A stretch of 64,000 bases of DNA from a phage. Positions 12,958-45,699 of the stretch are shown one piece after another; the first letter of the stretch is position 1, and each line of letters begins with the position of its first letter. The notes beneath the pieces were generated by a model. It did not search any database, was not told the DNA's origin, and saw only the letters and a program-made list of their open reading frames with translations. The stretch is taken from NCBI GenBank assembly GCA_036253495.1, contig GCA_036253495.1_4125.1, one strand, 5' to 3'. The position numbers and the translations under genes are program-made.

Positions 12958-13299
12958 ATGAAAACTAATATTCAACTTAAGGTTTATAAATCATTTGCAA
13001 GTACATATATCAAATGCAGTCTATGTAAAGATGTAATGGACTACAAAGGTAAGCCATTCACGATTACTTACGATTCTACAAGAGGTTTTTATATATCTTT
13101 TGCTGATTACAAATATAACATGTACGAACACATTGACATTGAAGATTTAAGTACTTTATCTGAAGAAGAATACTTTCAAGAATCATTAGTATGGGATTTA
13201 GAGTTTCCTATGCCATTGGTACATAAGATGATAGTACTAATAAAAGAAACTAAACAGGAGCCTAATAGTGCTTATGAAGAACACATTATTGAGTACTGA
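12958..13299 (+). CDS. FQxS-family protein
   Basis: track ORF; motif SEEEYFQESLVWD. Confidence 0.7.
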   Translation: MKTNIQLKVYKSFASTYIKCSLCKDVMDYKGKPFTITYDSTRGFYISFADYKYNMYEHIDIEDLSTLSEEEYFQESLVWDLEFPMPLVHKMIVLIKETKQEPNSAYEEHIIEY

Positions 13300-13302
13300 A
13301 CC

Positions 13303-13533
13303 ATGAAAAGATTATCATTCGAAGAGTACTGCAAGCTTATTAATACTTTACAACCACAAATAAAACAAATAAATTCTCTTCCTATATCCCAAGAAGAACG
13401 TGCAGTACTGAAAGATGAGTTAATTTTAAAATGCACAGTAGGTACTAACTATCAAGCTGATAGTGTTCGTTATCTAATTTGGGGTTTAATGTGCATAATA
13501 GAGAACAAAGCAGTTGACAGTACTCTAATGTAG
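13303..13533 (+). CDS. GTNYQ-family small protein
   Basis: track ORF; TVGTNYQ. Confidence 0.7.
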   Translation: MKRLSFEEYCKLINTLQPQIKQINSLPISQEERAVLKDELILKCTVGTNYQADSVRYLIWGLMCIIENKAVDSTLM

Positions 13534-13582
13534 TGCTATAGTGTCAGTACTTTTTCGAGCGTTAAAATATAGGGTACAGATT

Positions 13583-13828
13583 ATGTTAAAATTTTTAAAT
13601 TTCCTTATCGTCTTGTGTATTGTTCTTGGGATTGCACCGTTTGTATTAGCGTATCTGGATTCAGATGAAATGCACAAGATGAATTGCACAAAGACAGGAC
13701 AGAGTAGAAAAGAGACGGTTATGATGCCCGTAACGGTTATTGTGAATAACATGCCGATTACAAACATGGTCCCTACCCTAACGACAACGTACCAGTACTC
13801 TTGTGATGACGGAGAGAGGTGGAGATAA
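13583..13828 (+). CDS. hypothetical small membrane protein
   Basis: ATG 13583 within track ORF 13541; N-terminal TM helix FLIVLCIVLGIAPFVLAYL. Confidence 0.45.
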   Translation: MLKFLNFLIVLCIVLGIAPFVLAYLDSDEMHKMNCTKTGQSRKETVMMPVTVIVNNMPITNMVPTLTTTYQYSCDDGERWR

Positions 13829-13835
13829 TGCGATA

Positions 13836-14162
13836 ATGCGTAAGATCAATTGTATAAAAAGAGCGAATACATGTTTCATTGCGTTGACCAATGTACCGGG
13901 TGGGTCTGGTGTTAAGATATTTGAGTACAATAAAGTTGATAATTGTTTCTATTGGGTAGAAGGTATCAAATCATATGAAAATACGATAGCAGTACCGAAT
14001 CTAGTTGATATCTCTGAAGAAGAAGAGTTTCAGTACATGTTAGTACACGATGATTCTTTTGGGTTGACATACAAAGAGATGAAGGAAGTACAAAGGCAGA
14101 TGATATCATGTATGAATATTTCTAAGCATTTCCTTCAAAATATTCATCCAATTTACGTATAA
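13836..14162 (+). CDS. FQxS-family protein
   Basis: SD GGAGAGAGGTGGAGA + ATG 13836; motif SEEEEFQYMLVHD. Confidence 0.65.
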   Translation: MRKINCIKRANTCFIALTNVPGGSGVKIFEYNKVDNCFYWVEGIKSYENTIAVPNLVDISEEEEFQYMLVHDDSFGLTYKEMKEVQRQMISCMNISKHFLQNIHPIYV

Positions 14163-14171
14163 GAGATTAAT

Positions 14172-14507
14172 ATGAAATTCAACATTCATAGAATTAATTC
14201 CGGTTGTATATTTGCTTATACGCATGAGAATTACAAGAAGTACATGAATCATGAAGTACATTATGTTTTTGAGGACGGTAAAGAATATTTTGCTTATTTG
14301 AGTCCCAGGAGTTTAGGTAAGTACGAGTTGCTTCAGGATCTTTCTCTTATGCAGGAAGATGAATTATTTCAGTACAGTCTAATTCATGACCCTTATATGT
14401 TTGATATAGATATTATGTGCAGTTTACAGAAGAGGATGAAAGAAGTTTGGGATTCGATTAAAAGAGGTGATTGTATAGAATATGATAGTATACAAGAAGA
14501 TGCCTAA
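14172..14507 (+). CDS. FQxS-family protein
   Basis: track ORF; motif QEDELFQYSLIHD. Confidence 0.7.
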   Translation: MKFNIHRINSGCIFAYTHENYKKYMNHEVHYVFEDGKEYFAYLSPRSLGKYELLQDLSLMQEDELFQYSLIHDPYMFDIDIMCSLQKRMKEVWDSIKRGDCIEYDSIQEDA

Positions 14508-14700
14508 CGGATATGAATTGAAGTACAGACATTTTATTCGAAATGTAGATTCAGATCCTTTTAATGTTAAAATGGCAGAGTTCGATTTATTATTTTATCT
14601 AGGAACGAGAGCACAGCCACAATTCGTTGATGCATACATAAGGGCTTTACGAACAGAGATAGTATGCACACCAAAGGAGTCTAAATGTACAAAAATGTAA
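14482..14700 (+). CDS. GTNYQ-family small protein
   Basis: track ORF; FYLGTRAQ; start uncertain (alt ATG 14500). Confidence 0.6.
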   Translation: MIVYKKMPNGYELKYRHFIRNVDSDPFNVKMAEFDLLFYLGTRAQPQFVDAYIRALRTEIVCTPKESKCTKM

Positions 14701-14942
14701 ACCATCATTTGTACGCATCAAAGTACAGGGATTTTTGTTTACAAGGGGGCGATGAAGATTTTGCTTTGCGATTATCGGAATTTAATATGTTATTTTATCT
14801 TGGTACATCAGTACAAGAAGAAATGGTACAGAAATTTATCAAGCACCTTGAACGAAAAATTCATACGCAAATTTTGGTTGTTAAGTTACAGAATGAGATA
14901 AATGAATACAATGCAGAATCTAACAATAGTACAGGATCTTAG
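14685..14942 (+). CDS. GTNYQ-family small protein
   Basis: track ORF; FYLGTSVQ. Confidence 0.65.
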   Translation: MYKNVNHHLYASKYRDFCLQGGDEDFALRLSEFNMLFYLGTSVQEEMVQKFIKHLERKIHTQILVVKLQNEINEYNAESNNSTGS

Positions 14943-15856: not shown

Positions 15857-16372
15857 ATGAATGAAATTGAATTATTAACGCACAAGATTAGTACAATAAT
15901 GCTTATGCTCAAAAATAATCATCCTATACATAAGTACATTGATATAGATGAATTACGCATAGAAGATAGGCATGGTAAATTATCGTTTATGTTTCACAAT
16001 GCAAATAATGCAGGGAATGTTAACGTTTGTATTGCAGCATTTACCCAAGCCAATCCAGTACAAACATCTCCTGTTGTATACGAAAATAAAGAAGGGTATT
16101 TGTGGGTAAACACAAACGATTATTTCTTTTATGATTTGAAACAAGATGATGAAGTAGAAGAACGAATTGATTTAATTGATATTAGTACAGATTGTAGTGC
16201 TGAATTATTTCAGAAATCGTTATTATATAGTCCTCGTCAAATGCATTATCTAAAGTTATTCAGTTCATTGTACGCGAATCCTTTAATTAAGGGTTTTAAA
16301 TTTTATATAAAAGTTCCTGACATTCAAGCAGTTTATGATATTTTGATGCAAGGATATAGTTATGAAGTATAG
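15857..16372 (+). CDS. FQxS-family protein
   Basis: track ORF; motif SAELFQKSLLYS. Confidence 0.7.
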   Translation: MNEIELLTHKISTIMLMLKNNHPIHKYIDIDELRIEDRHGKLSFMFHNANNAGNVNVCIAAFTQANPVQTSPVVYENKEGYLWVNTNDYFFYDLKQDDEVEERIDLIDISTDCSAELFQKSLLYSPRQMHYLKLFSSLYANPLIKGFKFYIKVPDIQAVYDILMQGYSYEV

Positions 16373-16670
16373 AATGCTCTATACAAAAGATATGATTTAT
16401 GTTGAATTAGAAGGCGATGAAGACGGTTGGAATTTGATTTATTCATGTAGTTCAGGTTGGTACATGGCACATTTAAATGATAACGAAGTCACAGATTATT
16501 TTGTAGATTTCAATACATTATCCGACGAAGAATTGTTTCAACAGCAATTAGTGATTGACACAGGTGGATATGATGTGTTATTATTAAAAAAGATACAGAA
16601 AGCTGTTATGAATTTTAATGCCCAGGTATCCGAATGGGAAAGGAAATATTATGACCTCGAAGTACAATAA
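16362..16670 (+). CDS. FQxS-family protein
   Basis: track ORF; motif SDEELFQQQLVID. Confidence 0.7.
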   Translation: MKYRMLYTKDMIYVELEGDEDGWNLIYSCSSGWYMAHLNDNEVTDYFVDFNTLSDEELFQQQLVIDTGGYDVLLLKKIQKAVMNFNAQVSEWERKYYDLEVQ

Positions 16671-17019
16671 TACATTTGATATCAATAAGTTAACAGAATG
16701 GTTTTATAATATTGAAATTGAAGCTATTCCGTATCATAAGTACGAACAAAGTGATTTGCGTAGTATAGATATTCGTGAGTTGTATGCATATTATCAGAGT
16801 GCATTAGAGATGCATAAGATATTTTTGAGTACAGAATACATGACACGTTGTAAGGATGCGTTTGATGAATTCAAGAAGAATGATAATTTAGTACAGAAAT
16901 ATGTAATAGCAAAGTACATGTACCTTCAGGGAATTACAAGTACAGTGGAATTCAATACAGTTCTTGCTTTAGTTGAGATTATTTTATTATGCAAAAATGT
17001 AAAGTGGAATTTAGTTTAG
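16651..17019 (+). CDS. hypothetical protein
   Basis: SD GGAAAGGAAA + ATG 16651 (track 16618). Confidence 0.55.
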   Translation: MTSKYNNTFDINKLTEWFYNIEIEAIPYHKYEQSDLRSIDIRELYAYYQSALEMHKIFLSTEYMTRCKDAFDEFKKNDNLVQKYVIAKYMYLQGITSTVEFNTVLALVEIILLCKNVKWNLV

Positions 17020-17486
17020 AGAGTGCTGTACAGTACGTTAAGTACATTGAAGGTGTATACAATATAATGAAAGCATATGAAGGAAAAGGATATGCTTCAA
17101 TAAATCACAAATATGATTATATTAACAATCAGTTAGAAGAATCAAATTCAGGTAAAGTGCTTTTTAGTTTTTTATATTTTGCTCCTGACAATGTATATCC
17201 TGATGAAAATGATCTTCGTCTGGAAAGAGATGACCTTTGGTATATGTATCCAGGACGTGATAAGCCAATGGATGATGCTTTGTTGGAAATCAAATACAGT
17301 ACAGAACCTTTGACACCGGAGTTGTGGTTCCAGTACAGTACAATACATGAAGAAATTGATATCTTTTTCTACGCAATATATAAGATGCTTTATGAGAATG
17401 GTGTGCTTAAGAATCATGTATATTTTTATTTCCAGCAAATGAAAAATGTATATGAGTCCTTTTACCCAACCGAGCCTGTATCGTAA
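16989..17486 (+). CDS. FQxS-family protein
   Basis: track ORF; motif PELWFQYSTIHE. Confidence 0.7.
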   Translation: MQKCKVEFSLESAVQYVKYIEGVYNIMKAYEGKGYASINHKYDYINNQLEESNSGKVLFSFLYFAPDNVYPDENDLRLERDDLWYMYPGRDKPMDDALLEIKYSTEPLTPELWFQYSTIHEEIDIFFYAIYKMLYENGVLKNHVYFYFQQMKNVYESFYPTEPVS

Positions 17487-17512
17487 GATATGGGCTTTTT
17501 TACGTTTTGGTA

Positions 17513-17568: not shown

Positions 17569-18111
17569 ATGCAAACATCGCAAAAATCGCAAAAATCGCA
17601 AGTACAGAAAGCAATGACATTCAATGAAATTGGTGCATTTAAAGATAAGATTATTGATTGTATTGAATACGCGATTTGTAGTAATATCAAAAGTATAGAG
17701 GTATTTAACAAGTCAAATCGCTCTTACCATATGATGTACATTGCAAACAATAATGGTATCATTCCATTTGTTTCGGATAGTACAATATGGTTCGCTTGCG
17801 ATGTGAAAAAATACACAATAGGTTCATATGTCTTCGGTAAACATGGTGATCTAATTATTCCTGAGCATTGTATGCAAGAAGAAGAATATTTTCAAAAGCA
17901 ATGTGTACATGAACCATTAGAGATGGTTGCTTTATATATGATACCTTATATCTCTAAATGTGTTCATGAGAATAAAGCTCCGTGGAATCATGAATTTGTA
18001 TCGTTGAAGTTATTGTATAATGTTTTAGTACAATATTATGATTACAGACACGAGGGTACAATCAGCGATGTATGGGATTTCGAAAATTTAAGGGTAAAAA
18101 CATATGAATAA
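17569..18111 (+). CDS. FQxS-family protein
   Basis: track ORF; SD AAGGAGAA; motif EEEYFQKQCVHE. Confidence 0.7.
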   Translation: MQTSQKSQKSQVQKAMTFNEIGAFKDKIIDCIEYAICSNIKSIEVFNKSNRSYHMMYIANNNGIIPFVSDSTIWFACDVKKYTIGSYVFGKHGDLIIPEHCMQEEEYFQKQCVHEPLEMVALYMIPYISKCVHENKAPWNHEFVSLKLLYNVLVQYYDYRHEGTISDVWDFENLRVKTYE

Positions 18112-18742
18112 TTTTCCAAGAAATGCTTCACCGTATGAGGTGATGAAGTTCATGGAGCCTCATGTTCCTTATATGTTTGAAATGCTAAAGAAGTTCAATG
18201 CTATTTTCCCTGAGAATTCAAAATTGGAGATTCCATTTGATTCCGCATCCAGATACAGTGCATCCTGTGGTAAATTAGTTTTAGTTATCGGTAGTGACAG
18301 AATTGGTTTCAGGGAAGTATTTGACACGTCATTAGCATTTGGTATATTCGATAACAACAATAACATCACATACATTGACAAGTACATTTGCGACATAGCA
18401 GGTTCATCTAAGCCGGATTCCTTTGTGGATTCAGTTGCAGATTATGGTGTTTCAAAAGATGGTAATGTAATAAGTACAAAGACGTTCATATCATTATCGT
18501 TAGACGATGACATATGTTACATTGCAGGTCAAGAGTACGAGGGTGTAGAGGAAGTGCTTTTTCAAATGTCCTTAGTACAGAAGGATATGGTGGACCCTAC
18601 CGAAATCCTGAAGTTGTGCAAATATGCAAATGAGTACAAGAAATTGATTGAACCTGGGTTTAGTTTCAGTGCACAGAGTCCGCATTTTCAGATAAAAGTA
18701 TATGAAGATTTCATTTTGAAGTTAAAAGAGATTGTGTTATAA
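18104..18742 (+). CDS. FQxS-family protein
   Basis: track ORF; motif EEVLFQMSLVQK. Confidence 0.7.
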   Translation: MNNFPRNASPYEVMKFMEPHVPYMFEMLKKFNAIFPENSKLEIPFDSASRYSASCGKLVLVIGSDRIGFREVFDTSLAFGIFDNNNNITYIDKYICDIAGSSKPDSFVDSVADYGVSKDGNVISTKTFISLSLDDDICYIAGQEYEGVEEVLFQMSLVQKDMVDPTEILKLCKYANEYKKLIEPGFSFSAQSPHFQIKVYEDFILKLKEIVL

Positions 18743-18794: not shown

Positions 18795-19331
18795 ATGATC
18801 CAGCACAAACATTTTGAGTACGAGTTCGCTGACAATTTAGTAAAAATCGTACAGGCGTTTGAGGCTGGGGATTTTGACCACATCTATCCTAAGCACAAGG
18901 AAGGATGGCTTGAGCCTAAGAGCGATATTGAAAAGTATCCATCTATTGTGTATTACAGGAGAGATACGGTAATGCACGCTGTAGGTGAGAAGATGCAGTT
19001 AGAGTATTGTCTTTTGTTCAATGCTATTACATCGGCTACATCAGCATCTGAAGAGTTCGCTCCAGTGAATTGGATTCGTTATTTGGATATGAGCAAGAGA
19101 GAGGAAGAAACCTTTTTTGCTTTAACAAAGCACGTTGATATTGCAACCTTGAATCCTAACATCCTGAGTCCTGAAGAATATTTTCAGGAGTCCTTAGTAC
19201 AAGATCCTTATGTTTTACAGGTGCAGCAAGTATATAATGTATTACGTGCTAATGTGAAAACGAATTTCTTTTTAGCTTTAACGTGGTACGATAGGTTAGT
19301 AAAAGATCTCAAAGAGATTAAGGGGGAGTAA
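18795..19331 (+). CDS. FQxS-family protein
   Basis: track ORF; SD GGGAGTGA; motif PEEYFQESLVQD. Confidence 0.7.
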   Translation: MIQHKHFEYEFADNLVKIVQAFEAGDFDHIYPKHKEGWLEPKSDIEKYPSIVYYRRDTVMHAVGEKMQLEYCLLFNAITSATSASEEFAPVNWIRYLDMSKREEETFFALTKHVDIATLNPNILSPEEYFQESLVQDPYVLQVQQVYNVLRANVKTNFFLALTWYDRLVKDLKEIKGE

Positions 19332-19897
19332 TGCTGGACCTTCAGGACATAGAAAGTACATGCAAAGCGATAGAAGATGATTTAGAATACATCAAGGGGT
19401 TGTATTTAATTGTAGATAGGATTTACAAAAATCCGAATGCGTTTCAGGAAACGTACCAGCATGATAAATTTCGTCACGAACCAATCATTACGCTTATGTC
19501 GGATTTATCGATTTACGAAAGAAAATCCAACAAATCACATAGTGTATTATTTGTGAGTACAGATAGATTTTACAGTACAACATCAATTTGTTCAGATGTA
19601 TCATGTGCATGGTTCAGTTCAAATGAATATATAACAGTTAAAAATAATGGCGAAAATGAGAAATTAAAAGTAAGTGAGCTTATTGATTTGATGCCATATA
19701 GTCCTGATGTTGTGTTTCAGTACAGTACATTGCACGATTATAATTCAATACGATATCGTTATTTTGTTAAGCATTATTATGATACCTTCGGGGAGTTGAC
19801 GGAGAAGTTAACGTTGAGATTTGACCGTGATATCGATCTCGTTGCAATGCTTCAGTACATACAGTACGTGTTTGATAAGGACGCGGAAAAGGGGTAA
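19331..19897 (+). CDS. FQxS-family protein
   Basis: track ORF; motif PDVVFQYSTLHD. Confidence 0.7.
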   Translation: MLDLQDIESTCKAIEDDLEYIKGLYLIVDRIYKNPNAFQETYQHDKFRHEPIITLMSDLSIYERKSNKSHSVLFVSTDRFYSTTSICSDVSCAWFSSNEYITVKNNGENEKLKVSELIDLMPYSPDVVFQYSTLHDYNSIRYRYFVKHYYDTFGELTEKLTLRFDRDIDLVAMLQYIQYVFDKDAEKG

Positions 19898-20097: not shown

Positions 20098-20454
20098 ATG
20101 AGCAATGATTTTGCTATTCACAGTTTTTTCTACAAAAAGGTTGAGTTCTATTGTAATCTCGTTAAGGGTGATACCAATCATTCGTTGGACCAATATATTA
20201 AGTACACCTCAAATGGATTTTCTTTTATTGATTACGGTCGAGTGGGTGGTGGTGTTAATGAACCTCTACTGGACTATACAGAAATGGATGAGGCTACACT
20301 ATTTCAGGAATCATTAGTGTTCGATAAGAAATATATTTGTACACTAGATGAAGTTATTGGTATTCAGAATATCATGAAAGAACACTCTGCGAAGTGCATG
20401 ATAGAATTAACTCAAGATAAGCACAAGACTGTTCAGTACCATTTCAATCTTTAG
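20098..20454 (+). CDS. FQxS-family protein
   Basis: track ORF; SD AGAGGT; motif EATLFQESLVFD. Confidence 0.7.
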   Translation: MSNDFAIHSFFYKKVEFYCNLVKGDTNHSLDQYIKYTSNGFSFIDYGRVGGGVNEPLLDYTEMDEATLFQESLVFDKKYICTLDEVIGIQNIMKEHSAKCMIELTQDKHKTVQYHFNL

Positions 20455-20465: not shown

Positions 20466-20810
20466 ATGACATACAATGAATACCGTGAAATAGATCTTCT
20501 CCAGAATACATTATATGAAATTGAAGATTTAATGCACGGATGGACAAGTCTTTCTTTCTTTAATGAAATGTTCGAAGAAATAAAAGTAGTACTACAGAAA
20601 AAACATAATGGTACTAAAATTAAAATAAAGACTTTCACTGGAGAAGTCTGGTGCGGAGAAATTGTGAAATACATTATAACTCGCAATAACGCATCATTCT
20701 GTTTGAATACTGGTCATTACAGAAATCATTTCAACAATAGCAGTACTCAAATTATTTCCGAGGAAGAATACAATGAGCACTGTAATAAACTTCTTAAGAG
20801 TAGATTCTAA
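20466..20810 (+). CDS. hypothetical protein
   Basis: track ORF 114 aa; no family motif. Confidence 0.55.
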   Translation: MTYNEYREIDLLQNTLYEIEDLMHGWTSLSFFNEMFEEIKVVLQKKHNGTKIKIKTFTGEVWCGEIVKYIITRNNASFCLNTGHYRNHFNNSSTQIISEEEYNEHCNKLLKSRF

Positions 20811-21136
20811 TGAATACTAAAATATATGTTTCTTCAAGTACAATGGGAAGTGGTTTTACTTATACGTGCTTTTTTACTACATTGAATAAAACACCTATAT
20901 TGATTATTCGTGATTTCAATGAATGTAATATAGAGTACGTATCCAAAACAGATAAGCTTCCTAATTACATCGAATGCGAATACATGGAGAACTATGAAAG
21001 TTTTATATTTCAGGAATCATTAGTATGGGATAAAGAAATCGATTTCTTTATGTACCTTGCATTACAAAAGTACTACAGAGATAACAAGGACCAAATAGTT
21101 CGTTCTTGCATTTATTCTATTAATCTGGAGTACTGA
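20810..21136 (+). CDS. FQxS-family protein
   Basis: track ORF; motif ESFIFQESLVWD. Confidence 0.7.
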   Translation: MNTKIYVSSSTMGSGFTYTCFFTTLNKTPILIIRDFNECNIEYVSKTDKLPNYIECEYMENYESFIFQESLVWDKEIDFFMYLALQKYYRDNKDQIVRSCIYSINLEY

Positions 21137-21307: not shown

Positions 21308-21790
21308 ATGAGTTTAGAAAGTGCATTGAAAGAAGCAAAGAAGATTCATGAGTACATGAATATGGCAAAAGAAGGTTCAGTTTACGGTATTTTCAAAGAC
21401 ACAAGTACTCAATATTATGTCTCTGATAACCTCATTGATAATGACTTCCCAGATACAGAAACGTGCGTACTAGATACCGACCCTAATGATTATGAATGTT
21501 TCATTGATATGCATAATGAGTACATGGTCTATGTTAATGATGGAGATATTACCATCTACAGTACTGTCCACGATACCGATGACATTATAATTCCGTGTGC
21601 AGTACTGGAAGGTCCGTGGGATAGTGAAGAGTATTACTTCCAACAAAGTACTGTATACAATGAAGAAGAACTTGATTGTATTGTAATTATGTGGTACTTT
21701 AAAAGTATTGGTTCTGAGAACTTCTATTTCGATTACAGATACGTAAAGAAAACTGTAGATAACGGTATTAATAAACTTCACAGGGGTTGA
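21308..21790 (+). CDS. FQxS-family protein (MSLESALKEAKK subgroup)
   Basis: track ORF; motif SEEYYFQQSTVYN; close paralog of 21792 and 22235. Confidence 0.75.
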   Translation: MSLESALKEAKKIHEYMNMAKEGSVYGIFKDTSTQYYVSDNLIDNDFPDTETCVLDTDPNDYECFIDMHNEYMVYVNDGDITIYSTVHDTDDIIIPCAVLEGPWDSEEYYFQQSTVYNEEELDCIVIMWYFKSIGSENFYFDYRYVKKTVDNGINKLHRG

Positions 21791-21791: not shown

Positions 21792-22235
21792 ATGAGTTTA
21801 GAAAGAGCACTAGAACTAGCCAACAAAATACATCACTTCCACGATAACATAAAAAGTGGGTTCTATGGTGATAAAGTAAGTGCATTTGGTAATGAGTATT
21901 ATCTATCAGGTATAAAGACATACTCTGCTGATATTTTACTTATGGGTCATGATAAAGACAATACTATACAGTACTCTTCATGTAGTCAATATACTAGTTT
22001 TATGGTATATATTCCAGGTACTAAGATTACTTTTGACACAACAAATACACCTGTTGACTTCGGGGTACTTGATGGCCCGTGGGGTACTGAAGAGTATTAC
22101 TTCCAACAGAGTCTCATTTTTAACCAAGAAATGCTTGATTCCTTGGTTGTGTTGTGGTACTTTAAGGAATTGAATTTTGAACCATTCTTTCTTGACTGGG
22201 GAGCATGTGAATATTTAAGTACAGGGGATTTGTAA
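21792..22235 (+). CDS. FQxS-family protein (MSLESALKEAKK subgroup)
   Basis: track ORF; motif TEEYYFQQSLIFN. Confidence 0.75.
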   Translation: MSLERALELANKIHHFHDNIKSGFYGDKVSAFGNEYYLSGIKTYSADILLMGHDKDNTIQYSSCSQYTSFMVYIPGTKITFDTTNTPVDFGVLDGPWGTEEYYFQQSLIFNQEMLDSLVVLWYFKELNFEPFFLDWGACEYLSTGDL

Positions 22236-23152: not shown

Positions 23153-23180
23153 TTGACAAGAGCCTGTACTGTGTTACAAT
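23153..23180 (+). promoter_or_regulatory. sigma70-like promoter
   Basis: TTGACA 23153-23158, 16-nt spacer, TACAAT 23175-23180. Confidence 0.5.
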
Positions 23181-24169: not shown

Positions 24170-24389
24170 ACAAGCACCAGCATCGGATTTTAGTTATGGG
24201 TTTATTATAGATATATTTTCTGGTACTGAAGAATCGGATATACCTCTCTATATCTTTGCTAATATGCGTTATATTTTTCGTATTGCAGAGGACAGTGACA
24301 AATCTGATATGTCTTTTATGATTAAAAAAATTATATACCTATCGTGCTATGAATATATGAATAAAATGAGCGAACACTATGACCTATGA
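24153..24389 (+). CDS. hypothetical protein
   Basis: track ORF 78 aa. Confidence 0.5.
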   Translation: MDNTFEQAPASDFSYGFIIDIFSGTEESDIPLYIFANMRYIFRIAEDSDKSDMSFMIKKIIYLSCYEYMNKMSEHYDL

Positions 24390-34983: not shown

Positions 34984-34987
34984 TTAC

Positions 34988-36575: not shown

Positions 36576-37026
36576 AGACGATTACGAATTACTGAAAAAG
36601 TTAATCCAGTACTGCCTCAATGAACTGGATAATGGTAAAGCTCGAAAATCAGGTTCATGGTTTGATGTAAGCTATCCATCAGACGGCGATGATATGATGA
36701 CATTATGGTCAAATGAAAGATACATTGATTATAGTGTAATGGATAATACTACTATAGATTATGTCAATGACAATGTATGGTATTTCAATACACAGTTAAT
36801 CATTGATATTAAAAGTATAGATTTAAGTACTGAGATTGATGAAGCAACCATATTTCAATTAAGTACTTTGTATTCTGATGAAGTGATATATCCGTTATTA
36901 CTTCTCCTACAGTTGCGAGCCATTGCAGCAGAACGTGGTTTCACATCCATATCATTTGCTCATGACATTGATGTACGAAGAGCTGAAATTACAAAATTAG
37001 TTGAGGGATATGATGGAACACTTTAG
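36568..37026 (+). CDS. FQxS-family protein
   Basis: track ORF; motif EATIFQLSTLYS. Confidence 0.7.
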   Translation: MNKDDYELLKKLIQYCLNELDNGKARKSGSWFDVSYPSDGDDMMTLWSNERYIDYSVMDNTTIDYVNDNVWYFNTQLIIDIKSIDLSTEIDEATIFQLSTLYSDEVIYPLLLLLQLRAIAAERGFTSISFAHDIDVRRAEITKLVEGYDGTL

Positions 37027-37504
37027 TACTAAAGACTTTGTGGAATTGCATAAAATTCTTGAAGAAAAATATATCAATGAACAATATGGTCGATTCGAAC
37101 TGGCTCCAGATATTATTCTTAAAATACAAAAAGATGGTATGATCCGAGTTGTATTTGAGCAGAAAAGAGGTTTAGACCATGACATTTTCATGCTCTTTGA
37201 TAGCAATAGTCCTATCTATGATGCACCAAGTTTCGATACAAGCACCATTGGTTCACAATCCGCAGTCTTTCATCCAGGAACTACTGTTGTAAAAATCGAT
37301 GGTGTAGATTGCAACATGCGACCTGTATCATTGGATGAAATTGATGAAGTTGAATTTCAGAACAGTACTGTGAATAATTATAGTGCAATGTTCACCTACA
37401 TGTGCTATCTTAACAGTACTTGTTGCAAATTTCTTATGTACACATCGTATGTAAATGAAGATGAAGTACTACACTATGTATTGAAAAAACTAAGAGAATT
37501 ATGA
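37013..37504 (+). CDS. FQxS-family protein
   Basis: ATG 37010/37013 (track TTG 37001); motif DEVEFQNSTVNN. Confidence 0.65.
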   Translation: MEHFSTKDFVELHKILEEKYINEQYGRFELAPDIILKIQKDGMIRVVFEQKRGLDHDIFMLFDSNSPIYDAPSFDTSTIGSQSAVFHPGTTVVKIDGVDCNMRPVSLDEIDEVEFQNSTVNNYSAMFTYMCYLNSTCCKFLMYTSYVNEDEVLHYVLKKLREL

Positions 37505-37505: not shown

Positions 37506-38108
37506 ATGATCATTGACATGCCTATTCTTAATAAAATGCTTAACCCTGTCATTACGTTAGCTAAAAGTATTTCTAATAATGAAAAGTTGCATCTCCCATA
37601 CTCTATGTTAACGTATGCAACTGATTTTTACAGGATTGAAATCTCGGCATGTGAACAACGAATTACACTAGCATTCAAACGCCTTGGTGCTGGACTTGCA
37701 AATGATTTTGATATTTCACTGATACTTCATGGTGAATTAGAAGATAGTAAAATTCTGTCCTATGAAAGAATTCTTCGCAGTACAAATGAAATAAAATTAT
37801 TCAAAACATTTTCACATTATAATGGTTCTGATGTTTCATATTATTTTGATAAGGATTCATTTAAGAATATCAAAAGTGTTGAAGTGAAAGATTTCAGCGA
37901 AGAATGGTATTTTCAAAATACATTAATTCATTCTTTACCTTCATATGAAGAAATGAAGATGAACATTGATCTTTATGAAAAATTAAAATCAGAACTGAAA
38001 TGTAATTTTCTATTATCAATGAACTACAAAAAGATCAGTACTGATGTGGTATTGGAAGATGAACTAATGAAACGAATTTGGTCTGCTATACCAGTTATTA
38101 AGGAATAA
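37506..38108 (+). CDS. FQxS-family protein
   Basis: track ORF; motif SEEWYFQNTLIHS. Confidence 0.7.
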   Translation: MIIDMPILNKMLNPVITLAKSISNNEKLHLPYSMLTYATDFYRIEISACEQRITLAFKRLGAGLANDFDISLILHGELEDSKILSYERILRSTNEIKLFKTFSHYNGSDVSYYFDKDSFKNIKSVEVKDFSEEWYFQNTLIHSLPSYEEMKMNIDLYEKLKSELKCNFLLSMNYKKISTDVVLEDELMKRIWSAIPVIKE

Positions 38109-38110: not shown

Positions 38111-38650
38111 ATGCACATTGCAACATTATCAAATACTAAAGAATTTGAGCTATGGCCTGAGAAAGTTAACAGCTTAAGACAGCGTTATGTGAATTTCTGC
38201 CGTGGTATCAGGAAAGCCAGTAGAATGTCACATTCACTAAGCATGTCAATTGATGGTTGTGTTATGAATGCAGATAAGAACCGTTTGTACGTTGAATCAT
38301 ACAGTTCGCAAGCTCTGTACATTATGCTTCATGCTGGTACACAAATCCCACAGAATTCGATTGGTTGTTATTCAATTACATGGTCTGGACGAAAGTCTAC
38401 TAAATTATATCCGTGCAAAAGAAACGACCAATCGTTCAGTGTTGATATTAATTACTGTGAGTACACTGAAGAAGAACACTTTCAGCACAGTACTCTTCAT
38501 GATATCATTGAGTACAATGAATGCATCAATGTACTGGATAAATGTTATGATTTAGAACATAATACTGGTATCGTTGTAGTTAATAATTGCTTTTTTGATA
38601 GTGATGTACTTGATACATTAGATTATTTTTTAGAGGGTTACAATGACTAA
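38111..38650 (+). CDS. FQxS-family protein
   Basis: track ORF; motif TEEEHFQHSTLHD. Confidence 0.7.
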   Translation: MHIATLSNTKEFELWPEKVNSLRQRYVNFCRGIRKASRMSHSLSMSIDGCVMNADKNRLYVESYSSQALYIMLHAGTQIPQNSIGCYSITWSGRKSTKLYPCKRNDQSFSVDINYCEYTEEEHFQHSTLHDIIEYNECINVLDKCYDLEHNTGIVVVNNCFFDSDVLDTLDYFLEGYND

Positions 38651-39260
38651 CATTAGAACAGAGTATGTTAAGTACGAGAAAGCACTACGTGATTTACTAA
38701 ACATTGCACCGGATTTAATTAGAGCTAAACAAACACTATTTGACAAGTACGGTCCGAAAAGTGAACTCAAGCTATCAAAAAAGGGAAAACCCACACAATA
38801 TACAACGCTGTATAATAGATATAGCGTTGGGATTTGTAATATCTATACAGATGAATTAGTACTGGAATTAACCCAAGACGATGATGAAGAAGCACATGAT
38901 TTATTTCCTGAATTTGAAGAGTGCATGTTTAGTCCAGGTAATCCAGTGTTTTTAACCTTAAATGATGGAAGAAAAACGCTAAAAGAATCGTTCATCACAT
39001 ATGATGCCAAAACTAAAACACTAATGGATATTGAATCTGGGTATAAGACTGATCTGAAATCACTTGAAGATTGTAAGGGTGCATTGTTTCAGATGGGTGT
39101 AATCACAGAGGTTACCACTACACCAGAAGAATTATGGCTTATGGTTTCAGTACTGAATGATTGGTACAAAGTGAAGAGTCTACGAAATATGTTCATTTAT
39201 ATCAAGCCTGATTGCATCAAGAAAGAAACACTAATTAACAATATGGTAATACCTGAATGA
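38643..39260 (+). CDS. FQxS-family protein (divergent)
   Basis: track ORF; motif KGALFQMGVITE. Confidence 0.65.
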   Translation: MTNIRTEYVKYEKALRDLLNIAPDLIRAKQTLFDKYGPKSELKLSKKGKPTQYTTLYNRYSVGICNIYTDELVLELTQDDDEEAHDLFPEFEECMFSPGNPVFLTLNDGRKTLKESFITYDAKTKTLMDIESGYKTDLKSLEDCKGALFQMGVITEVTTTPEELWLMVSVLNDWYKVKSLRNMFIYIKPDCIKKETLINNMVIPE

Positions 39261-39856
39261 AAAAAGATCCAAATGAAGACTTAATCAATTCTTTAAGTAC
39301 TATCAAAGATTTGTGGTTACGATATCGTGGATTGTATAGTGTTAAAGATACAGAAAATAACATACTCCAAAGTCTTAAAATCACGATTCGAATGCAATTC
39401 AAAAATGGAATGGCAGTTGATGTTGAGATGAACAAAACTGGAGTTTATGTATATGATGGTTCTCGAACTGCAATCTTTATGGCAGAATTCATAGATGAAG
39501 ACTGTAATCTATATTGTTCATACGACATTGAAAGTGGTGATATCGAAATGTTCGCTAATGAACCTATCCTGCTCCGTTTCACTAAATCATGGAATGAAGA
39601 TTACATTATATATCAAAATGGAGGCTTCTTAAATTCCGATGAGGAACCCATCGATAACATAGAAGAAATGGCATTCCAGAGTAGTACTGTTAATGATGAT
39701 GCATTATCTTATCAAGAAATCCTTGACACAGTGAATGGTTATGATAAGATACAGGCTGCAATGAAAGAGAACGGTATCTGTTACCTTACAGTACTGGACA
39801 AACTCTTCTACGATGAACTGTGTTCGTACCTGAACTGTATTCTCACTGAGGATTGA
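39257..39856 (+). CDS. FQxS-family protein
   Basis: track ORF; ATGA coupling; motif EEMAFQSSTVND. Confidence 0.7.
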   Translation: MKKDPNEDLINSLSTIKDLWLRYRGLYSVKDTENNILQSLKITIRMQFKNGMAVDVEMNKTGVYVYDGSRTAIFMAEFIDEDCNLYCSYDIESGDIEMFANEPILLRFTKSWNEDYIIYQNGGFLNSDEEPIDNIEEMAFQSSTVNDDALSYQEILDTVNGYDKIQAAMKENGICYLTVLDKLFYDELCSYLNCILTED

Positions 39857-40272
39857 TGATGATTCTATACCATGCAAGTACTGTTAAAATTGACAACTTC
39901 TACATTCCTTATGGTGGTTTACATATGGGAGGGAAGCATAGTGCTCTTGAGGCTGCGTTACGCAAGCTGAGAAGCCCACTGAACGTTGTTGATGCTGACA
40001 CGGTGTACTTGCATACCTTAGAAGTTGACGTTGATAACGTGCTTCTGTGTGAGGATATGGGTAGTGATGACGAATGGCGATCACTTATTGAGTATTGTGA
40101 TACTGAAGGTTACGATGCAGTTCAGTACAAGAATGAATACGAGCCGGACAATGTTCCTAGTTATATGATTTGGGATACATCTAAAGTTCGTATTGTTGAA
40201 GTTGATGCTATGCATATGGATGAAGCTGAAATGATTATCGAAGATTTTCTTGATGAATATGAAGGTGTATAA
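39853..40272 (+). CDS. hypothetical protein (locally more GC-rich)
   Basis: track ORF 139 aa; no family motif; composition differs from neighbours. Confidence 0.6.
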   Translation: MMMILYHASTVKIDNFYIPYGGLHMGGKHSALEAALRKLRSPLNVVDADTVYLHTLEVDVDNVLLCEDMGSDDEWRSLIEYCDTEGYDAVQYKNEYEPDNVPSYMIWDTSKVRIVEVDAMHMDEAEMIIEDFLDEYEGV

Positions 40273-40796
40273 TGACTGATTCAATGACAGTACTGGTACG
40301 TACTAAGTTACTATTGAAGATTGGTGAGATTTTCACAGATCTTATGCACAATCAAATTGATATTACAGAACTAGATATTAAGCAACCGTGGGAAATTACA
40401 AGGTTCTCGGCGTTCCACCGATTGTCATATAAAGGTGAAACTGTTCTTGATTTTAATCACAAAGCAAAATTCATGGATTATGCCGCGTTGTACCGAAATA
40501 ATTATTCAGGTTGTATAACCAATAACTTCAAAGGAATAAAAGTACAGATTGAATCAATTGAATTTAACGAATTACTATATCCAGAATTTAAGTTAACTGA
40601 AGAATCTATGTTTCAGTACTCACTAATTCTAAAAGATCTAGAAACTCTAGAGTACTACAGAGAGTTAGTAGATATTTTTATGAATGTTCGTCTTTCAAAA
40701 GATATTGTGATATTCTGGTATACAGAGCGTATTACAGAGGAAGTACTTGAAGAATTTCTCGTAAATATGACAGCTATTAAGGAGAATTTATGTTAG
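40272..40796 (+). CDS. FQxS-family protein
   Basis: track ORF; motif EESMFQYSLILK. Confidence 0.7.
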   Translation: MTDSMTVLVRTKLLLKIGEIFTDLMHNQIDITELDIKQPWEITRFSAFHRLSYKGETVLDFNHKAKFMDYAALYRNNYSGCITNNFKGIKVQIESIEFNELLYPEFKLTEESMFQYSLILKDLETLEYYRELVDIFMNVRLSKDIVIFWYTERITEEVLEEFLVNMTAIKENLC

Positions 40797-41254: not shown

Positions 41255-41669
41255 TATAAATGAATTAGTTAATGCTATCTTATCATGCAAATTAAAAATT
41301 GATACCAAATGTAAGTACAATGGTATTAATTTATACAAATTAAAATATTCACGAATACATAATTCAGTAAAATACATTTACGGTACTAGTCAAATCATCT
41401 TTGAAACGGTTACAGTGAACAGTAAATTACTTATTGATGTTTATATCAGTAATAAGATTAAAAATTCACAAAAAGTGTTGACAGTTTCTTCTGATAATGT
41501 TACTATGTTTGATACCAACAATAAGAAGTTAGATATTGATTTAGATGTTATTCTTGATGGTGACTTATTCCAGTACGAGTGTATTGGTCTAAATAATCCA
41601 TTTGATAAATCAGTACTAGTCAATTTAATCAAACATATTAAGGGTATTTTAGATGAAACTAACAACTGA
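41211..41669 (+). CDS. FQxS-family protein (divergent)
   Basis: track ORF; motif DGDLFQYECIGL. Confidence 0.6.
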   Translation: MNLPTLSIAETRLTNINELVNAILSCKLKIDTKCKYNGINLYKLKYSRIHNSVKYIYGTSQIIFETVTVNSKLLIDVYISNKIKNSQKVLTVSSDNVTMFDTNNKKLDIDLDVILDGDLFQYECIGLNNPFDKSVLVNLIKHIKGILDETNN

Positions 41670-42153
41670 TATGAAACTTTGCATTTCTTTGATTATGCGT
41701 TCATTCGATGACAAAAGGACAAGTAAAGTTACTATCACCAATGACCATTTACAATGCAGTACACTCAATAGTACTGTAGTTTTCGGATTACATAGCCTCC
41801 GTTTGACGATAGTAAATAATATTGACAATACGGCGATGTGTATTACCCCCTGCCACGTTCAGGATGAACATGGTGTTTATCTTCACCACATGGGGACTTC
41901 GTATTTCATTTTCAATGAAGAAAAGGGAGTACAAAAAGACTTTAACACGTTGTGCGTAGACGGCGGTGAATTGTTCCAGATGGGAACTTTATATCAGTGT
42001 GATTTTACTGATACATCTGAAGTACTTCCATTATTTCTTGATCTCATTAAGAATTTAGGTTCATTTACTGGTCGCTATAACAAATCATTAAAGGCACAGG
42101 CAATTCAAAATATCTCGGAAGCAATAGAATATTACGAAAACGCTGTGTCGTAA
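41653..42153 (+). CDS. FQxS-family protein (divergent)
   Basis: track ORF; motif GGELFQMGTLYQ. Confidence 0.65.
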   Translation: MKLTTDMKLCISLIMRSFDDKRTSKVTITNDHLQCSTLNSTVVFGLHSLRLTIVNNIDNTAMCITPCHVQDEHGVYLHHMGTSYFIFNEEKGVQKDFNTLCVDGGELFQMGTLYQCDFTDTSEVLPLFLDLIKNLGSFTGRYNKSLKAQAIQNISEAIEYYENAVS

Positions 42154-43666: not shown

Positions 43667-43686
43667 TACATGGAGATAGATTTAGT

Positions 43687-43989
43687 ATGGATACTAAATT
43701 TGAAATTAAATTCTTGACACAACCATATACTCCTAATACTGGGAAACGTTTTATTCCTGAAGGAGCAGTAGAGGTTGTTCACCCTGATGGTACTAAATTG
43801 TATTTGAATCCATGTTCATATGAGCGTGCTGTTGAAATGCTTATCATGAACTGTAAGCACAATACAAAGACAGAGGACAGTAAGTACATCAGTTATCTAT
43901 ATAGCGAGCACATCCTCGACTTCCAAGACGAGAATATGTTCATCCTTGCAATTCAAGACTTTGAAAATTGGATTGAAAATATTGTCTAA
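43687..43989 (+). CDS. hypothetical protein
   Basis: track ORF 100 aa; SD TGGAGA. Confidence 0.65.
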   Translation: MDTKFEIKFLTQPYTPNTGKRFIPEGAVEVVHPDGTKLYLNPCSYERAVEMLIMNCKHNTKTEDSKYISYLYSEHILDFQDENMFILAIQDFENWIENIV

Positions 43990-44055
43990 AATCATCTGGA
44001 CATATGACAATTCAATGATATAATGTTCGCATCTTTTTGATAAACGGAGATAAAG

Positions 44056-44442
44056 ATGAATACAAGTTCTATTCTAAAAGCAATTGGTGGTGTACTTCTC
44101 ATCGAGGTACAAGGTGAACCAAAACTATGTTGTTTAGAAGATATGAAACAAACTAAATTCTTTGGTACTGGTCAGATTTTCAATGCAATTCGTGTTTTGA
44201 ATGATAAAACAGTAGGTGACTACGGTCGTGCATGGCCTAACTATCGCAATGACGAAGGTGAAATCAGTACTGACTGGAAAACAATTGAAGCTGTTCGTCA
44301 GAATTGTGATTCAGATTGGGATTTCATTGTTGAAGTGTGTAATCAACTTCAAGAAGAAGTACCAGAGATTGTTGAACGTAAAGAAGTACTATCACAGCTA
44401 GAGAAGTTCCGTCACGGAACACTACAATACGAAGTACTGTAA
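44056..44442 (+). CDS. hypothetical protein
   Basis: track ORF 128 aa; SD ACGGAGA. Confidence 0.65.
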   Translation: MNTSSILKAIGGVLLIEVQGEPKLCCLEDMKQTKFFGTGQIFNAIRVLNDKTVGDYGRAWPNYRNDEGEISTDWKTIEAVRQNCDSDWDFIVEVCNQLQEEVPEIVERKEVLSQLEKFRHGTLQYEVL

Positions 44443-44496
44443 TATCTCCGATTATTAAAACAAACTAATTAAACATTATATAAAAAGGAATTTAAA

Positions 44497-44805
44497 ATGG
44501 AAGACAACGGAATGAAATTTGATATGTTTGAAGGTGTACCAGAGTTTGATTTCAACAAGCTTGAAAATGGCGAAGAAGCAGAACTCGTAAGTGTTACCTT
44601 AAAATCGGATACTAAGAAGAAATACTCTTCAGCAGTTCGTGCTCGTTCACAAGAAGAATATGAAACGTTCATTGAAAGTATTCATTATGAAACAATGACT
44701 CGTGCAGATGGAAGTACTTATGAAGTTCGCGTTACAGTACTGAAACCTGAAGTTAATCCTCTTGAGAATTTGAAACCAGTCTACTGCTGGGGAACCTCAA
44801 ACTAA
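44497..44805 (+). CDS. hypothetical protein
   Basis: track ORF 102 aa; SD AAAAGGAA. Confidence 0.65.
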   Translation: MEDNGMKFDMFEGVPEFDFNKLENGEEAELVSVTLKSDTKKKYSSAVRARSQEEYETFIESIHYETMTRADGSTYEVRVTVLKPEVNPLENLKPVYCWGTSN

Positions 44806-44820
44806 TACATAATAAAAAAA

Positions 44821-44846
44821 GGTCGGGAATATTCTCGGCCTTTTTG
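44821..44846 (+). terminator. rho-independent terminator
   Basis: GGTCGGGAATATTCTCGGCC hairpin then TTTTT. Confidence 0.75.
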
Positions 44847-44859
44847 TCTATGAGGCACT

Positions 44860-45699
44860 ATGAAATTAAATTTTATTATCAACTTTAATGTTAAAGAAAC
44901 CGATCATTACGCATCAGAAGATGACCGTGTTGCACCAGCTTCGTCTGAATACATCAGAAATGAAAATGTCCATATGCATGAAAATTATTTCGACTTTGGT
45001 AATTTTATTATCTACCGTGGATTTAAGGATGTTGTATTCCGTTCCAGATATGAAGACTTTGAACATGCACTCATTGATGTACCAGATGAATTAGTATTCC
45101 AGTTCATGTTACTTGGTATTAAAGATTATGACTTTATAGTTTATAACCATTATACTAAGCGTATTATGATTGGTAATGATTCATATGATCTTACTTATTA
45201 TTCCAGTACTGATGAAGATTTAGAAAATATTAAACGCCGTTCTGGTGGTATACGTAATTGTTCATCTTCAAACTCCAGTAGAATGAGTGAAAGGTTTTTT
45301 GATTTCAAAAATAGCAATAATAACGACTGTGAAGACGCGGACAATACTGAACATGTAATGTTTGAAATTGACCACAATAATGGATATAATGACTTCCTTA
45401 ATGTTCTGAAGCCTTATATCAATCATAAATTCATCAAAGATGTAAATCTGGTAGCTCGTGACTTACAGTACAGTGATCGTACTGGTGGTATGCCTGTACC
45501 AATGGATCGTGTATGTACGAACAATACAGTGTTTAATGTACCACGAGAAGATGTTGCATTTGTATTTCTGGCATTTTTGAATTCAGATGCACTATGGGAC
45601 GATAATGAAAGACAATTTAGTTCAAGACATATTGAAATAATTCGTCAAAATACATTACTACTGTGGAAGAAATTTACTGAAAATACCCAGGACAAATAA
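44860..45699 (+). CDS. hypothetical protein (279 aa), FQxS-like motif
   Basis: track ORF; motif DELVFQFMLLGI. Confidence 0.65.
   Translation: MKLNFIINFNVKETDHYASEDDRVAPASSEYIRNENVHMHENYFDFGNFIIYRGFKDVVFRSRYEDFEHALIDVPDELVFQFMLLGIKDYDFIVYNHYTKRIMIGNDSYDLTYYSSTDEDLENIKRRSGGIRNCSSSNSSRMSERFFDFKNSNNNDCEDADNTEHVMFEIDHNNGYNDFLNVLKPYINHKFIKDVNLVARDLQYSDRTGGMPVPMDRVCTNNTVFNVPREDVAFVFLAFLNSDALWDDNERQFSSRHIEIIRQNTLLLWKKFTENTQDK

Follow-up and report, generated by a model that had tools for sequence, protein, structure and literature searches.

The multigene families (MGF) 360, 505 and 110 of African swine fever virus and the Bcl-2-like proteins of poxviruses consist of non-structural copies, each of which binds a different host factor. 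Tandem genes for small, acidic and diverged alpha/beta proteins were reportedly recognised by Zhang, Iyer and Aravind in 2011 as the hallmark of polyimmunity loci, and the internal proteins of phage T4 carry an N-terminal capsid-targeting sequence that is cleaved and directs packaging into the head. Among jumbo phages, Bacillus phage G has a lineage-specific expansion of a zinc ribbon in about 35 copies (Iyer et al., PMC7824862), and an array of '>30 very similar genes' was noted in phage 121Q (PMC5646251). The present analysis concerns a 64-kb stretch of phage DNA (contig GCA_036253495.1_4125.1, hereafter the window), in which the long open reading frames (ORFs) are all on the + strand and the G+C content is about 33%. 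The window contained 42 firm members of one highly diverged protein family, located at 12958-40796 and 53174-53752 and named here the FQxS family after the short block that its members share.

The family and its FQxS block were confirmed as real and far beyond chance, and the descriptive account given of them here is held with high confidence. A family hidden Markov model (HMM) was seeded with the motif-bearing ORFs and iterated to convergence at a member cut-off of E < 1e-4; 4 of the 42 members were added by the HMM from outside the seed set. Of the 110 ORFs that lie between 12.9 and 55 kb, 39 contained FQx[ST], where per-ORF shuffling gave an expectation of 3.0 +/- 1.7; the 69 ORFs of the remaining window had none. 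The convergence of the HMM at 42 members and the shuffling test bore out the proposal of the initial annotation that one diverged paralogous family shares a single short block.

The dimensions of the family differed from those first proposed. Instead of about 50 copies of 100-280 amino acids (aa) reaching to 45699 and taking up about 40% of the window, there were 42 firm members, one probable and one possible; the firm members were 102-212 aa long, totalled 20.6 kb (32% of the window, or about 6% of the 355-kb genome), and reached their 3' limit in the array at 40796. The ORFs at 42194-45699, including a pair of 278 and 279 aa, received no membership support from a relaxed HMM and hhalign and were excluded as non-members; by the same two methods, the ORFs at 40790-41669 and the interspersed ORFs at 31842, 36090, 38643, 24824 and others were unsupported. 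Of the pair at 53174-54438 that had been listed as outliers, 53174-53752 was a firm member, while 53749-54438 lacked the FQxS block and is only a probable one. The head-to-tail array held as far as tight packing is concerned, but about 20 ORFs within its range belonged to other families (a family of about 70 aa with an 'LGTNYQ' block, a chemoreceptor-like gene and singletons). The reading frames of all 42 members were intact, and orthologues of members were found in every related phage examined.

Alignments were constructed for the 42 window members and for 100 members from four phages. Mean column identity was 13% and 9%, respectively, and in both alignments the Phe and Gln of the block were the sole invariant residues besides Met1. 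The block had the consensus [ST]-E-E-x-x-F-Q-x-S-[TL]-[VIL]-[YHF]-[DN]; C-terminal to it came a helix in which hydrophobic positions were conserved, and then an F-Y-x-D strand. The relative position of the block in the protein was 0.51-0.75, mostly 0.6-0.7, in line with the earlier remark that it lies about two-thirds into the protein. Phe and Gln were present in 42/42 window members and Ser or Thr at +3 in 38/42, and the block was found in 165 of the 170 relatives retrieved.

The AGY and TCN codon families of Ser cannot be interconverted by synonymous change. The Ser of the block was encoded by AGY in 22 copies and by TCN in 15, which indicates that the conservation acts on the protein and not on the DNA. 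Phe was encoded by TTT and TTC in 31 and 11 copies, Gln by CAG and CAA in 28 and 14 copies, and the 36-nt block shared an average DNA identity of 51% among copies. Tandem Repeats Finder detected no tandem DNA repeats in the FQxS array. The mixed codons, the 51% identity and the lack of tandem repeats ruled out a DNA-repeat artefact, so that the block is a conserved protein element, as had been proposed.

The members were acidic, with a median isoelectric point of 4.76 against 6.7 for the other ORFs and an Asp plus Glu content of 15.8%; they were rich in Tyr and Phe, and 41 of the 42 had no membrane-like segment. Structures were predicted by AlphaFold2. With the 42 paralogues as input alignment, the model of 21308-21790 showed an alpha/beta fold at a mean predicted local distance difference test score (pLDDT) of 82 and a predicted template modelling score (pTM) of 0.80. 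It began with a long N-terminal helix, six short strands and short helices; after these came the motif helix (107-113) and a turn that led to a long helix (119-133), and the chain closed with a strand and a last helix. Region 91-140, which includes the helix and turn of the block, reached a pLDDT of 92-96. The model of 37506-38108 was of low confidence (pLDDT 59) and had a larger sheet, but its elements came in an unchanged order, from the N-terminal helix through the beta meander and the motif helix to the long helix. HMM detection and the identical order of secondary structure in the two models support one shared scaffold for the paralogues, as the initial annotation had suggested, and in the confident model of the two members modelled the motif was predicted to form one conserved structural element, a short helix and turn.

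No recognised domain was reported for the family initially, and the searches agreed. In Pfam-A, NCBIfam and PADLOC, each family was matched by at most one of the 42 members and no match passed the threshold, and neither sequence-profile nor fold similarity to any solved chain was found in the PDB. Foldseek against the viral models of BFVD gave, at E < 1, only unnamed entries or ones from 121Q, RaK2, GAP32, SP27 and Serratia phage BF. PHROGs spreads the 42 proteins over 35 families, all of unknown function, the largest of which (phrog_12674, phrog_9317 and phrog_13866) matched 15, 12 and 9 window members; these three and the 32 others hold the same proteins as the window family, whose unity and FQxS block are unrecorded in PHROGs. 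Three more specific assignments were rejected. The PDB profile match to AcrIIA2 was non-significant (E 0.48) and missing from the structural hits. An ADP-ribosyltransferase-like reading of 'Q-x-S-T' and 'EE' failed on the wrong motif order, the small size of the proteins and zero fold hits. The 'DNA ligase' label carried by the A4 orthologue of 18795-19331 (A4_348) is not credible, because the KxDG adenylation motif is absent from the translation, which is otherwise that of a typical family member.

Megablast analysis of an 8-kb piece of the window revealed 98.4% identity to Escherichia phage A4 (355.5 kb, Asteriusvirus, 121Q/PBECO4 group), the sole phage record matched. The window thus derives from an Asteriusvirus jumbo coliphage, and the array occupies the region of small genes in this RaK2-like jumbo myovirus. 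The A4 locus contained 43 members, and further members were present in phage 121Q (40), Klebsiella phage RaK2 (at least 34), Salmonella phage Munch (20), Cronobacter phage GAP32 (about 8, with a degenerate block) and four metagenome contigs of 11-20 kb each (15-30 members each). The degenerate blocks of GAP32 read MFQLST, KFQKND and MMQYSY; these relatives were still detected by the HMM, so loss of the block apparently need not destroy the fold. An HMM scan of 1.84 billion representative proteins gave only 175 clusters at E <= 0.001, and among the matches listed (150 of the 175) the clusters were 65-212 aa long with zero fused domains. In every context inspected the family stood within a head-to-tail array. 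Word-indexed homologue searches returned close Asteriusvirus relatives only, and complete E. coli genomes gave zero matches. From the sequences searched, the family appears to be confined to RaK2-like jumbo phages. Several relatives are recorded as proteins of 'Escherichia coli'; their contigs, 347-358 kb long, are whole Asteriusvirus genomes inside bacterial assemblies. Lytic phage genomes in such assemblies have been described (PMC12768965).

Apart from a single sentence of Hua et al. 2017 and the mention of '10% paralogues' in the RaK2 paper, the literature searched contained no description of the family, and the jumbo-phage overview of Iyer et al. (PMC7824862) does not describe it. In that literature the FQxS family is undefined and unanalysed.

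The array was tightly packed. Of its 61 junctions, 53 were at most 10 nt long or overlapping, and 16 overlapped by exactly 1 or 4 nt, which agrees with the polycistronic layout and frequent start/stop overlap that had been pointed out. At 11/12 or better, the + strand had 24 matches to the sigma-70 consensus and the - strand had 2; 13 of the 24 were intergenic, in DNA that makes up 6.3% of the window, and lay 32-57 nt ahead of a start codon. Clear intergenic promoters inside the array were located at 23153, 26713 and 31782, with weaker sites after terminator-like hairpins at 17472 and 33804, so that few strong promoters serve the array, as the initial annotation had it. Short-ORF regions with RpoD promoters were measured to hold early genes in phage PA5oct (PMC7318152) and were interpreted as early in phage CBB (PMC5259590). 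By analogy, the layout would fit long early operons read by the host RNA polymerase.

Comparison of the window with A4 gave a proportion of synonymous differences (pS) of 0.038 and of nonsynonymous differences (pN) of 0.0082 for the members. Their pN/pS of 0.217, against 0.197 for neighbouring non-members, shows that the members are under purifying selection, without an excess that would indicate diversification. The pN/pS of 0.22 and conservation in at least five phage lineages ruled out that the ORFs are not real genes. Reciprocal best hits between the window and 121Q were collinear, with a median identity of 35% for members and 74% for other genes, and most members were nearer to their positional counterpart in 121Q than to any paralogue in the same genome. 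The 16 reciprocal best pairs with RaK2 were also collinear (Spearman rho 0.92, p 5.5e-7). Only a single paralogue pair was more than 50% identical over most of its length, the paralogues being mostly below 40%. Collinearity with 121Q and RaK2 and the closeness of positional counterparts show that the array is old, stable and ordered, and neither a recent amplification nor a product of rapid gene birth and death. In diverged orthologue pairs, identity was highest in the motif block (56%) and lowest in the beta region (27.5%); the N-terminal helix had 37% and the part after the motif 35%.

Divergence from 121Q was patchy: slots of 78-90% identity adjoined slots of 25-38%, with sharp switches at gene boundaries. 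Across 26180-39856 and 58167-62206, protein identity to 121Q flipped between 75-98% and 25-45% for family and non-family genes alike. Switches of this kind suggest mosaic block replacement between Asteriusvirus lineages. The 'diversifying arsenal' of the initial annotation therefore stood only in so far as the orthologues in 121Q are far more diverged than other genes; the effect is regional, and the low pN/pS and the stable order speak against it.

A4 carries two members that are missing from the window. One is at a 23-bp overlap of the alignment pieces (21792-21814), and such overlapping homology is as expected for unequal crossing-over between adjacent paralogues. Since these two copies differ in presence between phages of 98.4% identity, single copies are dispensable. 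Indel sites relative to A4 were found at 17518/17599, 21792-21814, 42813/42830, 46942/46978 and 8338/8394. The A4 inserts comprised the two FQxS genes, about 650 bp with an HNH endonuclease, about 620 bp ahead of a Dam methylase gene and about 900 bp near 8.3 kb.

The structural proteome of phage phAPEC6 contained nothing between gp347 and gp549, whereas one family member of this phage is gp442c, and the virion proteome of RaK2 contained nothing between gp275 and gp493, whereas its members are ORF363-439. These two proteomes ruled out that the family consists of virion proteins.

On this evidence, the family would be an old, ordered set of small, acidic, soluble alpha/beta proteins of RaK2-like jumbo phages. 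The array would be transcribed early by the host RNA polymerase from a few strong sigma-70-type promoters into long, translationally coupled operons, and the proteins would remain in the infected cell, unpackaged. Their common fold would begin with an N-terminal helix and a beta meander and continue through the motif helix to a long C-terminal helix, with the block forming an N-capped short helix (S/T-E-E-x-x-F-Q) and then a tight turn (x-S-[TL]-[VIL]-aromatic-[DN]) into the long helix. The block would be invariant as a keystone that locks the fold or as a site common to all copies, and the beta meander, the most variable part, would supply a copy-specific surface. Each copy would bind a different target, most probably a host factor in takeover or counter-defence, and the slots would be retained long-term, yet each copy would be individually dispensable. 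Early-type promoters, absence from virions, individual dispensability and the analogy with multigene families of other large viruses make host proteins the most probable targets. Early timing, a binding role and host targets are what we infer, and the host-takeover or anti-defence role would follow from the position of the genes, the timing signals and the character of the proteins. The statement as a whole, that these are early non-virion binding proteins on one scaffold with this role, is offered tentatively, with a confidence slightly short of even.

Several points weigh against this proposal. Of the two structural models, only one was confident. The case for early timing is built on consensus promoters and an analogy to relatives, and the first 50 kb of PA5oct holds zero family members. 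Acidity, small size and a position in an early region are generic among phage early genes. Non-family genes in the diverged block were as diverged from 121Q as the members (31842, 29%; 38643, 30%), which makes block replacement by recombination at least as likely as accelerated change in the family; the extreme divergence from 121Q may thus reflect such replacement and not selection on the family. The recent pN/pS of the members was no higher than that of their neighbours, and the conservation of individual slots from genus to genus speaks against a fast arms race.

The block may also be read as a docking face. The EE-x-x-FQ-x-S face would then dock every paralogue to one partner (a host hub such as RNA polymerase, the ribosome or a protease, or else a phage enzyme), and the variable beta surface would recruit different targets, as in F-box or PRANC adaptors. 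Invariant Phe and Gln and a Ser that is 88% conserved, in a family alignment with 9% mean column identity, exceed the usual need of a hydrophobic core; together with the GAP32 relatives, which the HMM detected despite their degenerate block, this makes a common site a live alternative to a structural keystone. The block was moreover the best-conserved segment among diverged orthologues. However, the model placed it with very high confidence in a short helix and turn packed into the long helix, a placement for which a structural role would account just as well, and the GAP32 copies may merely be decaying. Docking to one partner is considered unlikely as the common role. A new-fold adaptor system, in which this face plugs about 40 paralogues into one hub and the beta surfaces deliver different host proteins to it, is slightly more doubtful again; RNA polymerase, the ribosome, an AAA+ protease or a phage enzyme may be the hub. 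If true, it would be a bacterial-virus counterpart of F-box/PRANC substrate receptors, by which dozens of host targets are reprogrammed or destroyed at once, and a hub shared by the copies would represent a new mode of phage takeover.

Similarly doubtful is an immunity-type array, in which the copies are antidotes that each neutralise a different toxin of host abortive-infection systems, toxin-antitoxin systems or competing phages. The array resembles polyimmunity loci in its tandem, small, acidic and diverged alpha/beta proteins, has the RNA-repair genes RnlA and polynucleotide kinase about 12 kb downstream of it, and differs in copy number between near-identical phages. No fold similarity to SUKH/SMI1 or other solved immunity proteins was found, the Pfam Imm families were unmatched, and no toxin domain was present among the scanned window ORFs or the annotated neighbourhoods. 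Such an array would in any case be a sub-case of host-directed binding proteins and not a true alternative to them.

A role inside the phage programme, as subunits or chaperones of an intracellular phage structure or of the replication or assembly machinery, is held to be about as improbable as an immunity array. Orthology by slot, order conserved across genera and purifying selection would fit housekeeping, and translationally coupled operons suit stoichiometric complexes. Against it, two copies were present or absent between 98.4%-identical phages, copy number ranged from about 8 to about 43 among related genera, orthologues fell to 25-35% identity where core genes had 75-98%, and the promoters were of the host sigma-70 type and not of a late type.

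The initial annotation had also considered a common processing site, FQ|xS, cleaved or recognised by one protease in the manner of a polyprotein or of tobacco etch virus (TEV), and this idea was not borne out. E-x-x-Y-F-Q occurred at the block in 10 of the 42 members, resembling the TEV site E-x-x-Y-x-Q|(S/G), and a ClpP-like protease is encoded about 20 kb downstream in 121Q. However, the strict TEV consensus occurred in 0/42 members, a small Ser followed the Gln in only 2/42 and the bulky and variable residues Y, L, E, N, Q, M or K in 39/42; the block was modelled as an ordered helix and turn (pLDDT 92-96) and not as a flexible linker, its flanking hydrophobic positions were conserved like core positions, and a Gln-specific protease was not identified. 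Cleavage at a shared site is therefore very improbable.

That the array is a now functionless residue of tandem duplication, padding the genome for a larger capsid as in the genome-padding ratchet idea of Hua et al. 2017, is scarcely credible: although single copies are dispensable, the pN/pS is 0.22 with 42/42 frames intact, the block has invariant residues although its Ser uses non-interconvertible codon families, order is kept across genera, arrays are retained in uncultivated lineages, and the age of the paralogues, mostly less than 40% identical, means that they are not recent padding.

Jumbo phages are under development for therapy, and most of their genes lack a known function. The definition of a single family merges 35 scattered PHROGs and hundreds of 'hypothetical proteins' into one tractable problem, for which three mutable residues, about 40 natural variants and natural deletions provide handles for study. 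If the copies bind different host proteins, as proposed above, they would form a ready-made inhibitor library against E. coli functions or defences.

The features of the array are listed in Table 1.

Table 1. Members of the FQxS family and transcription signals in the window. Coordinates start at the longest-ORF start, and real starts are possibly a few codons downstream. The basis for member rows is family HMM membership and a located block, unless more is stated.
Feature	Coordinates	Strand	Block	Remarks
Family member	12958..13299	+	SEEEYFQESLVW	80% identical to 121Q positional orthologue
Family member	13803..14162	+	SEEEEFQYMLVH	Met in place of Ser; HMM-recruited, outside seed set
Family member	14172..14507	+	QEDELFQYSLIH	
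Family member	15857..16372	+	CSAELFQKSLLY	
Family member	16362..16670	+	SDEELFQQQLVI	HMM-recruited, round 2
Family member	16989..17486	+	TPELWFQYSTIH	
Family member	17569..18111	+	QEEEYFQKQCVH	HMM-recruited; 83% identical to 121Q
Family member	18104..18742	+	VEEVLFQMSLVQ	
Family member	18795..19331	+	SPEEYFQESLVQ	A4 orthologue A4_348 annotated 'DNA ligase'
Family member	19331..19897	+	SPDVVFQYSTLH	
Family member	20098..20454	+	DEATLFQESLVF	
Family member	20810..21136	+	YESFIFQESLVW	
Family member	21308..21790	+	SEEYYFQQSTVY	AlphaFold-modelled; F111-Q112 within helix 107-113
Family member	21792..22235	+	TEEYYFQQSLIF	Site of one extra copy in phage A4
Family member	22235..22690	+	SEEYYFQQSTVY	53% identical to 21308, closest paralogue pair of the window
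Family member	22696..23142	+	NEEGYFQLSTVL	
Family member	23215..23748	+	FEEQMFQLSCTD	
Family member	24379..24927	+	NEESVFQLSTVY	
Family member	25426..25839	+	SEEEFFQESTVW	Longest-ORF start, true start maybe downstream; 90% identical to 121Q
Family member	25839..26177	+	SEEELFQESLVW	
Family member	26180..26716	+	TEELFFQMSTVD	
Family member	26773..27279	+	DECEYFQYCTIY	HMM-recruited, E 9e-13
Family member	27279..27782	+	SEEDYFQLSTTM	Identity 96% in A4, 26-30% in 32 other phages
Family member	27766..28104	+	SEEELFQMSTAF	
Family member	28104..28535	+	PPDELFQYSLVC	
Family member	28523..29005	+	TEETHFQLSLIY	
Family member	29002..29472	+	NEEMYFQNSLLY	
Family member	29482..29988	+	TDENYFQNSLIY	
Family member	29963..30574	+	LDETLFQYSLIH	Reciprocal best hit in RaK2
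Family member	30579..31211	+	SEESFFQNSLIY	Equally distant from 121Q (76.6 bits) and RaK2 (75.9 bits)
Family member	31208..31759	+	DDGVLFQYSTLY	
Family member	33816..34427	+	LEEQNFQSSVTH	No reciprocal best hit in 121Q
Family member	34411..34983	+	REAYLFQLSLLP	
Family member	34961..35539	+	IEEELFQLSTMY	
Family member	35536..36096	+	MDCDCFQKSLII	
Family member	36568..37026	+	DEATIFQLSTLY	
Family member	37001..37504	+	IDEVEFQNSTVN	
Family member	37506..38108	+	SEEWYFQNTLIH	Second AlphaFold model
Family member	38111..38650	+	TEEEHFQHSTLH	
Family member	39257..39856	+	IEEMAFQSSTVN	
Family member	40272..40796	+	TEESMFQYSLIL	Last firm member of the array; 79% identical to 121Q
Possible degenerate member	41653..42153	+		HMM E 6e-4; hhalign 55% across 16 columns only
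Outlying family member	53174..53752	+	GLPEHFQMSTLF	HMM E 2.4e-15; 87% identical to 121Q
Probable divergent member	53749..54438	+	EYIQENT, no FQxS block	HMM E 3.2e-6 among candidate ORFs; hhalign 82% over motif region
Sigma-70-like promoter	13514..13542	+		11/12, TG extension
Terminator-like hairpin	17472..17497	+		Followed by promoter-like site 17513-17541 (10/12, TG)
Sigma-70-like promoter, intergenic	23153..23180	+		11/12 with TG; next start 35 nt downstream
Perfect-consensus promoter, intergenic	26713..26741	+		12/12 with TG; next start 32 nt downstream
Terminator-like hairpin, then promoter	31748..31810	+		Hairpin 31748-31769; 11/12 promoter 31782-31810
Terminator-like hairpin with overlapping promoter	33804..33844	+		3' of chemoreceptor-like gene; 10/12 promoter with TG

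A second expanded family, the 25 copies of about 70 aa with the 'LGTNYQ' block, was located immediately 5' of the FQxS array, with further copies scattered within the array (8359-12955, 13303-13533, 14482-14942 and 23745-23972); it was also found in 121Q (26 hits), RaK2 (12) and the metagenome contigs. One member of this family was recently duplicated, which gives the window its only DNA-level tandem repeat (8587-8993; period 197 bp, 2.1 copies, 87% matching). A third, small paralogue group at 49232-50580 consists of five neighbouring ORFs of 73-115 aa that BLASTP linked to one another.

In the middle of the array, 32387-33799 encodes a protein of 470 aa. It has a methyl-accepting chemotaxis signalling domain (PF00015, E 7e-37) and, in its N-terminal part, about six membrane-like segments. 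This chemoreceptor-like gene was present in A4 and in one metagenome contig and absent at the matching position of 121Q, and a terminator-like hairpin lies 3' of it; its occurrence in a virulent phage is unexplained. Upstream of the arrays, eight perfect 12/12 promoters (TTGACA-N16/17-TATAAT) were found at 695-6554, each 33-57 nt 5' of a small gene, apparently a run of very strong monocistronic early units. Downstream, 54700-57851 and 62203-62946 contained genes for an RnlA-type RNA ligase of 381 aa and for orthologues of polynucleotide kinase/phosphatase (310 aa) and of a Ser/Thr phosphatase. These genes form an RNA-repair cluster like that of T4, which counters the host anticodon nuclease.

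Among the known systems, the DNA-mimic anti-restriction proteins Ocr and ArdA share with the family a strong acidity, which is non-specific; an ArdA Pfam match appeared in 1/42 members at E 0.073, and no structural match to either was found. The cleavage sites of TEV/NIa and 3C-type proteases (E-x-x-Y-x-Q|S/G; [LFM]-Q|[SAG]) have the acidic, aromatic and Gln spacing seen in 10/42 members, but the residue after Gln is non-small here, there are 0/42 strict fits and the secondary structure is ordered. Like the T4 internal proteins, the members are very diverse phage proteins that share one short motif; unlike them, they carry it at 0.51-0.75 of their length in a folded domain and are absent from virions. 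Polyimmunity loci (SUKH/SMI1-KNR4, Imm) are likewise arrays of small, acidic, diverged alpha/beta proteins, but here there was no structural or Pfam match, no toxin gene was adjacent and the phage is virulent. The zinc ribbons of phage G are also dozens of tandem copies of a small protein in a jumbo phage; they have a recognisable domain and a proposed DNA-binding role, whereas no domain is recognisable in the FQxS family. The '>30 very similar genes' of 121Q may refer to the FQxS family or to the neighbouring family of about 70 aa, although the FQxS copies have only 9-13% mean column identity. To the MGF proteins of African swine fever virus and the Bcl-2-like family of poxviruses the FQxS family has no sequence or fold homology, and it differs from them in its bacterial host, a gene order kept across genera and one invariant block. 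They would nevertheless be its closest behavioural analogues, by functional analogy and not homology: in each case, tens of tandem paralogues in a variable region encode non-structural proteins of low identity on a conserved fold, and copy number varies between close isolates.

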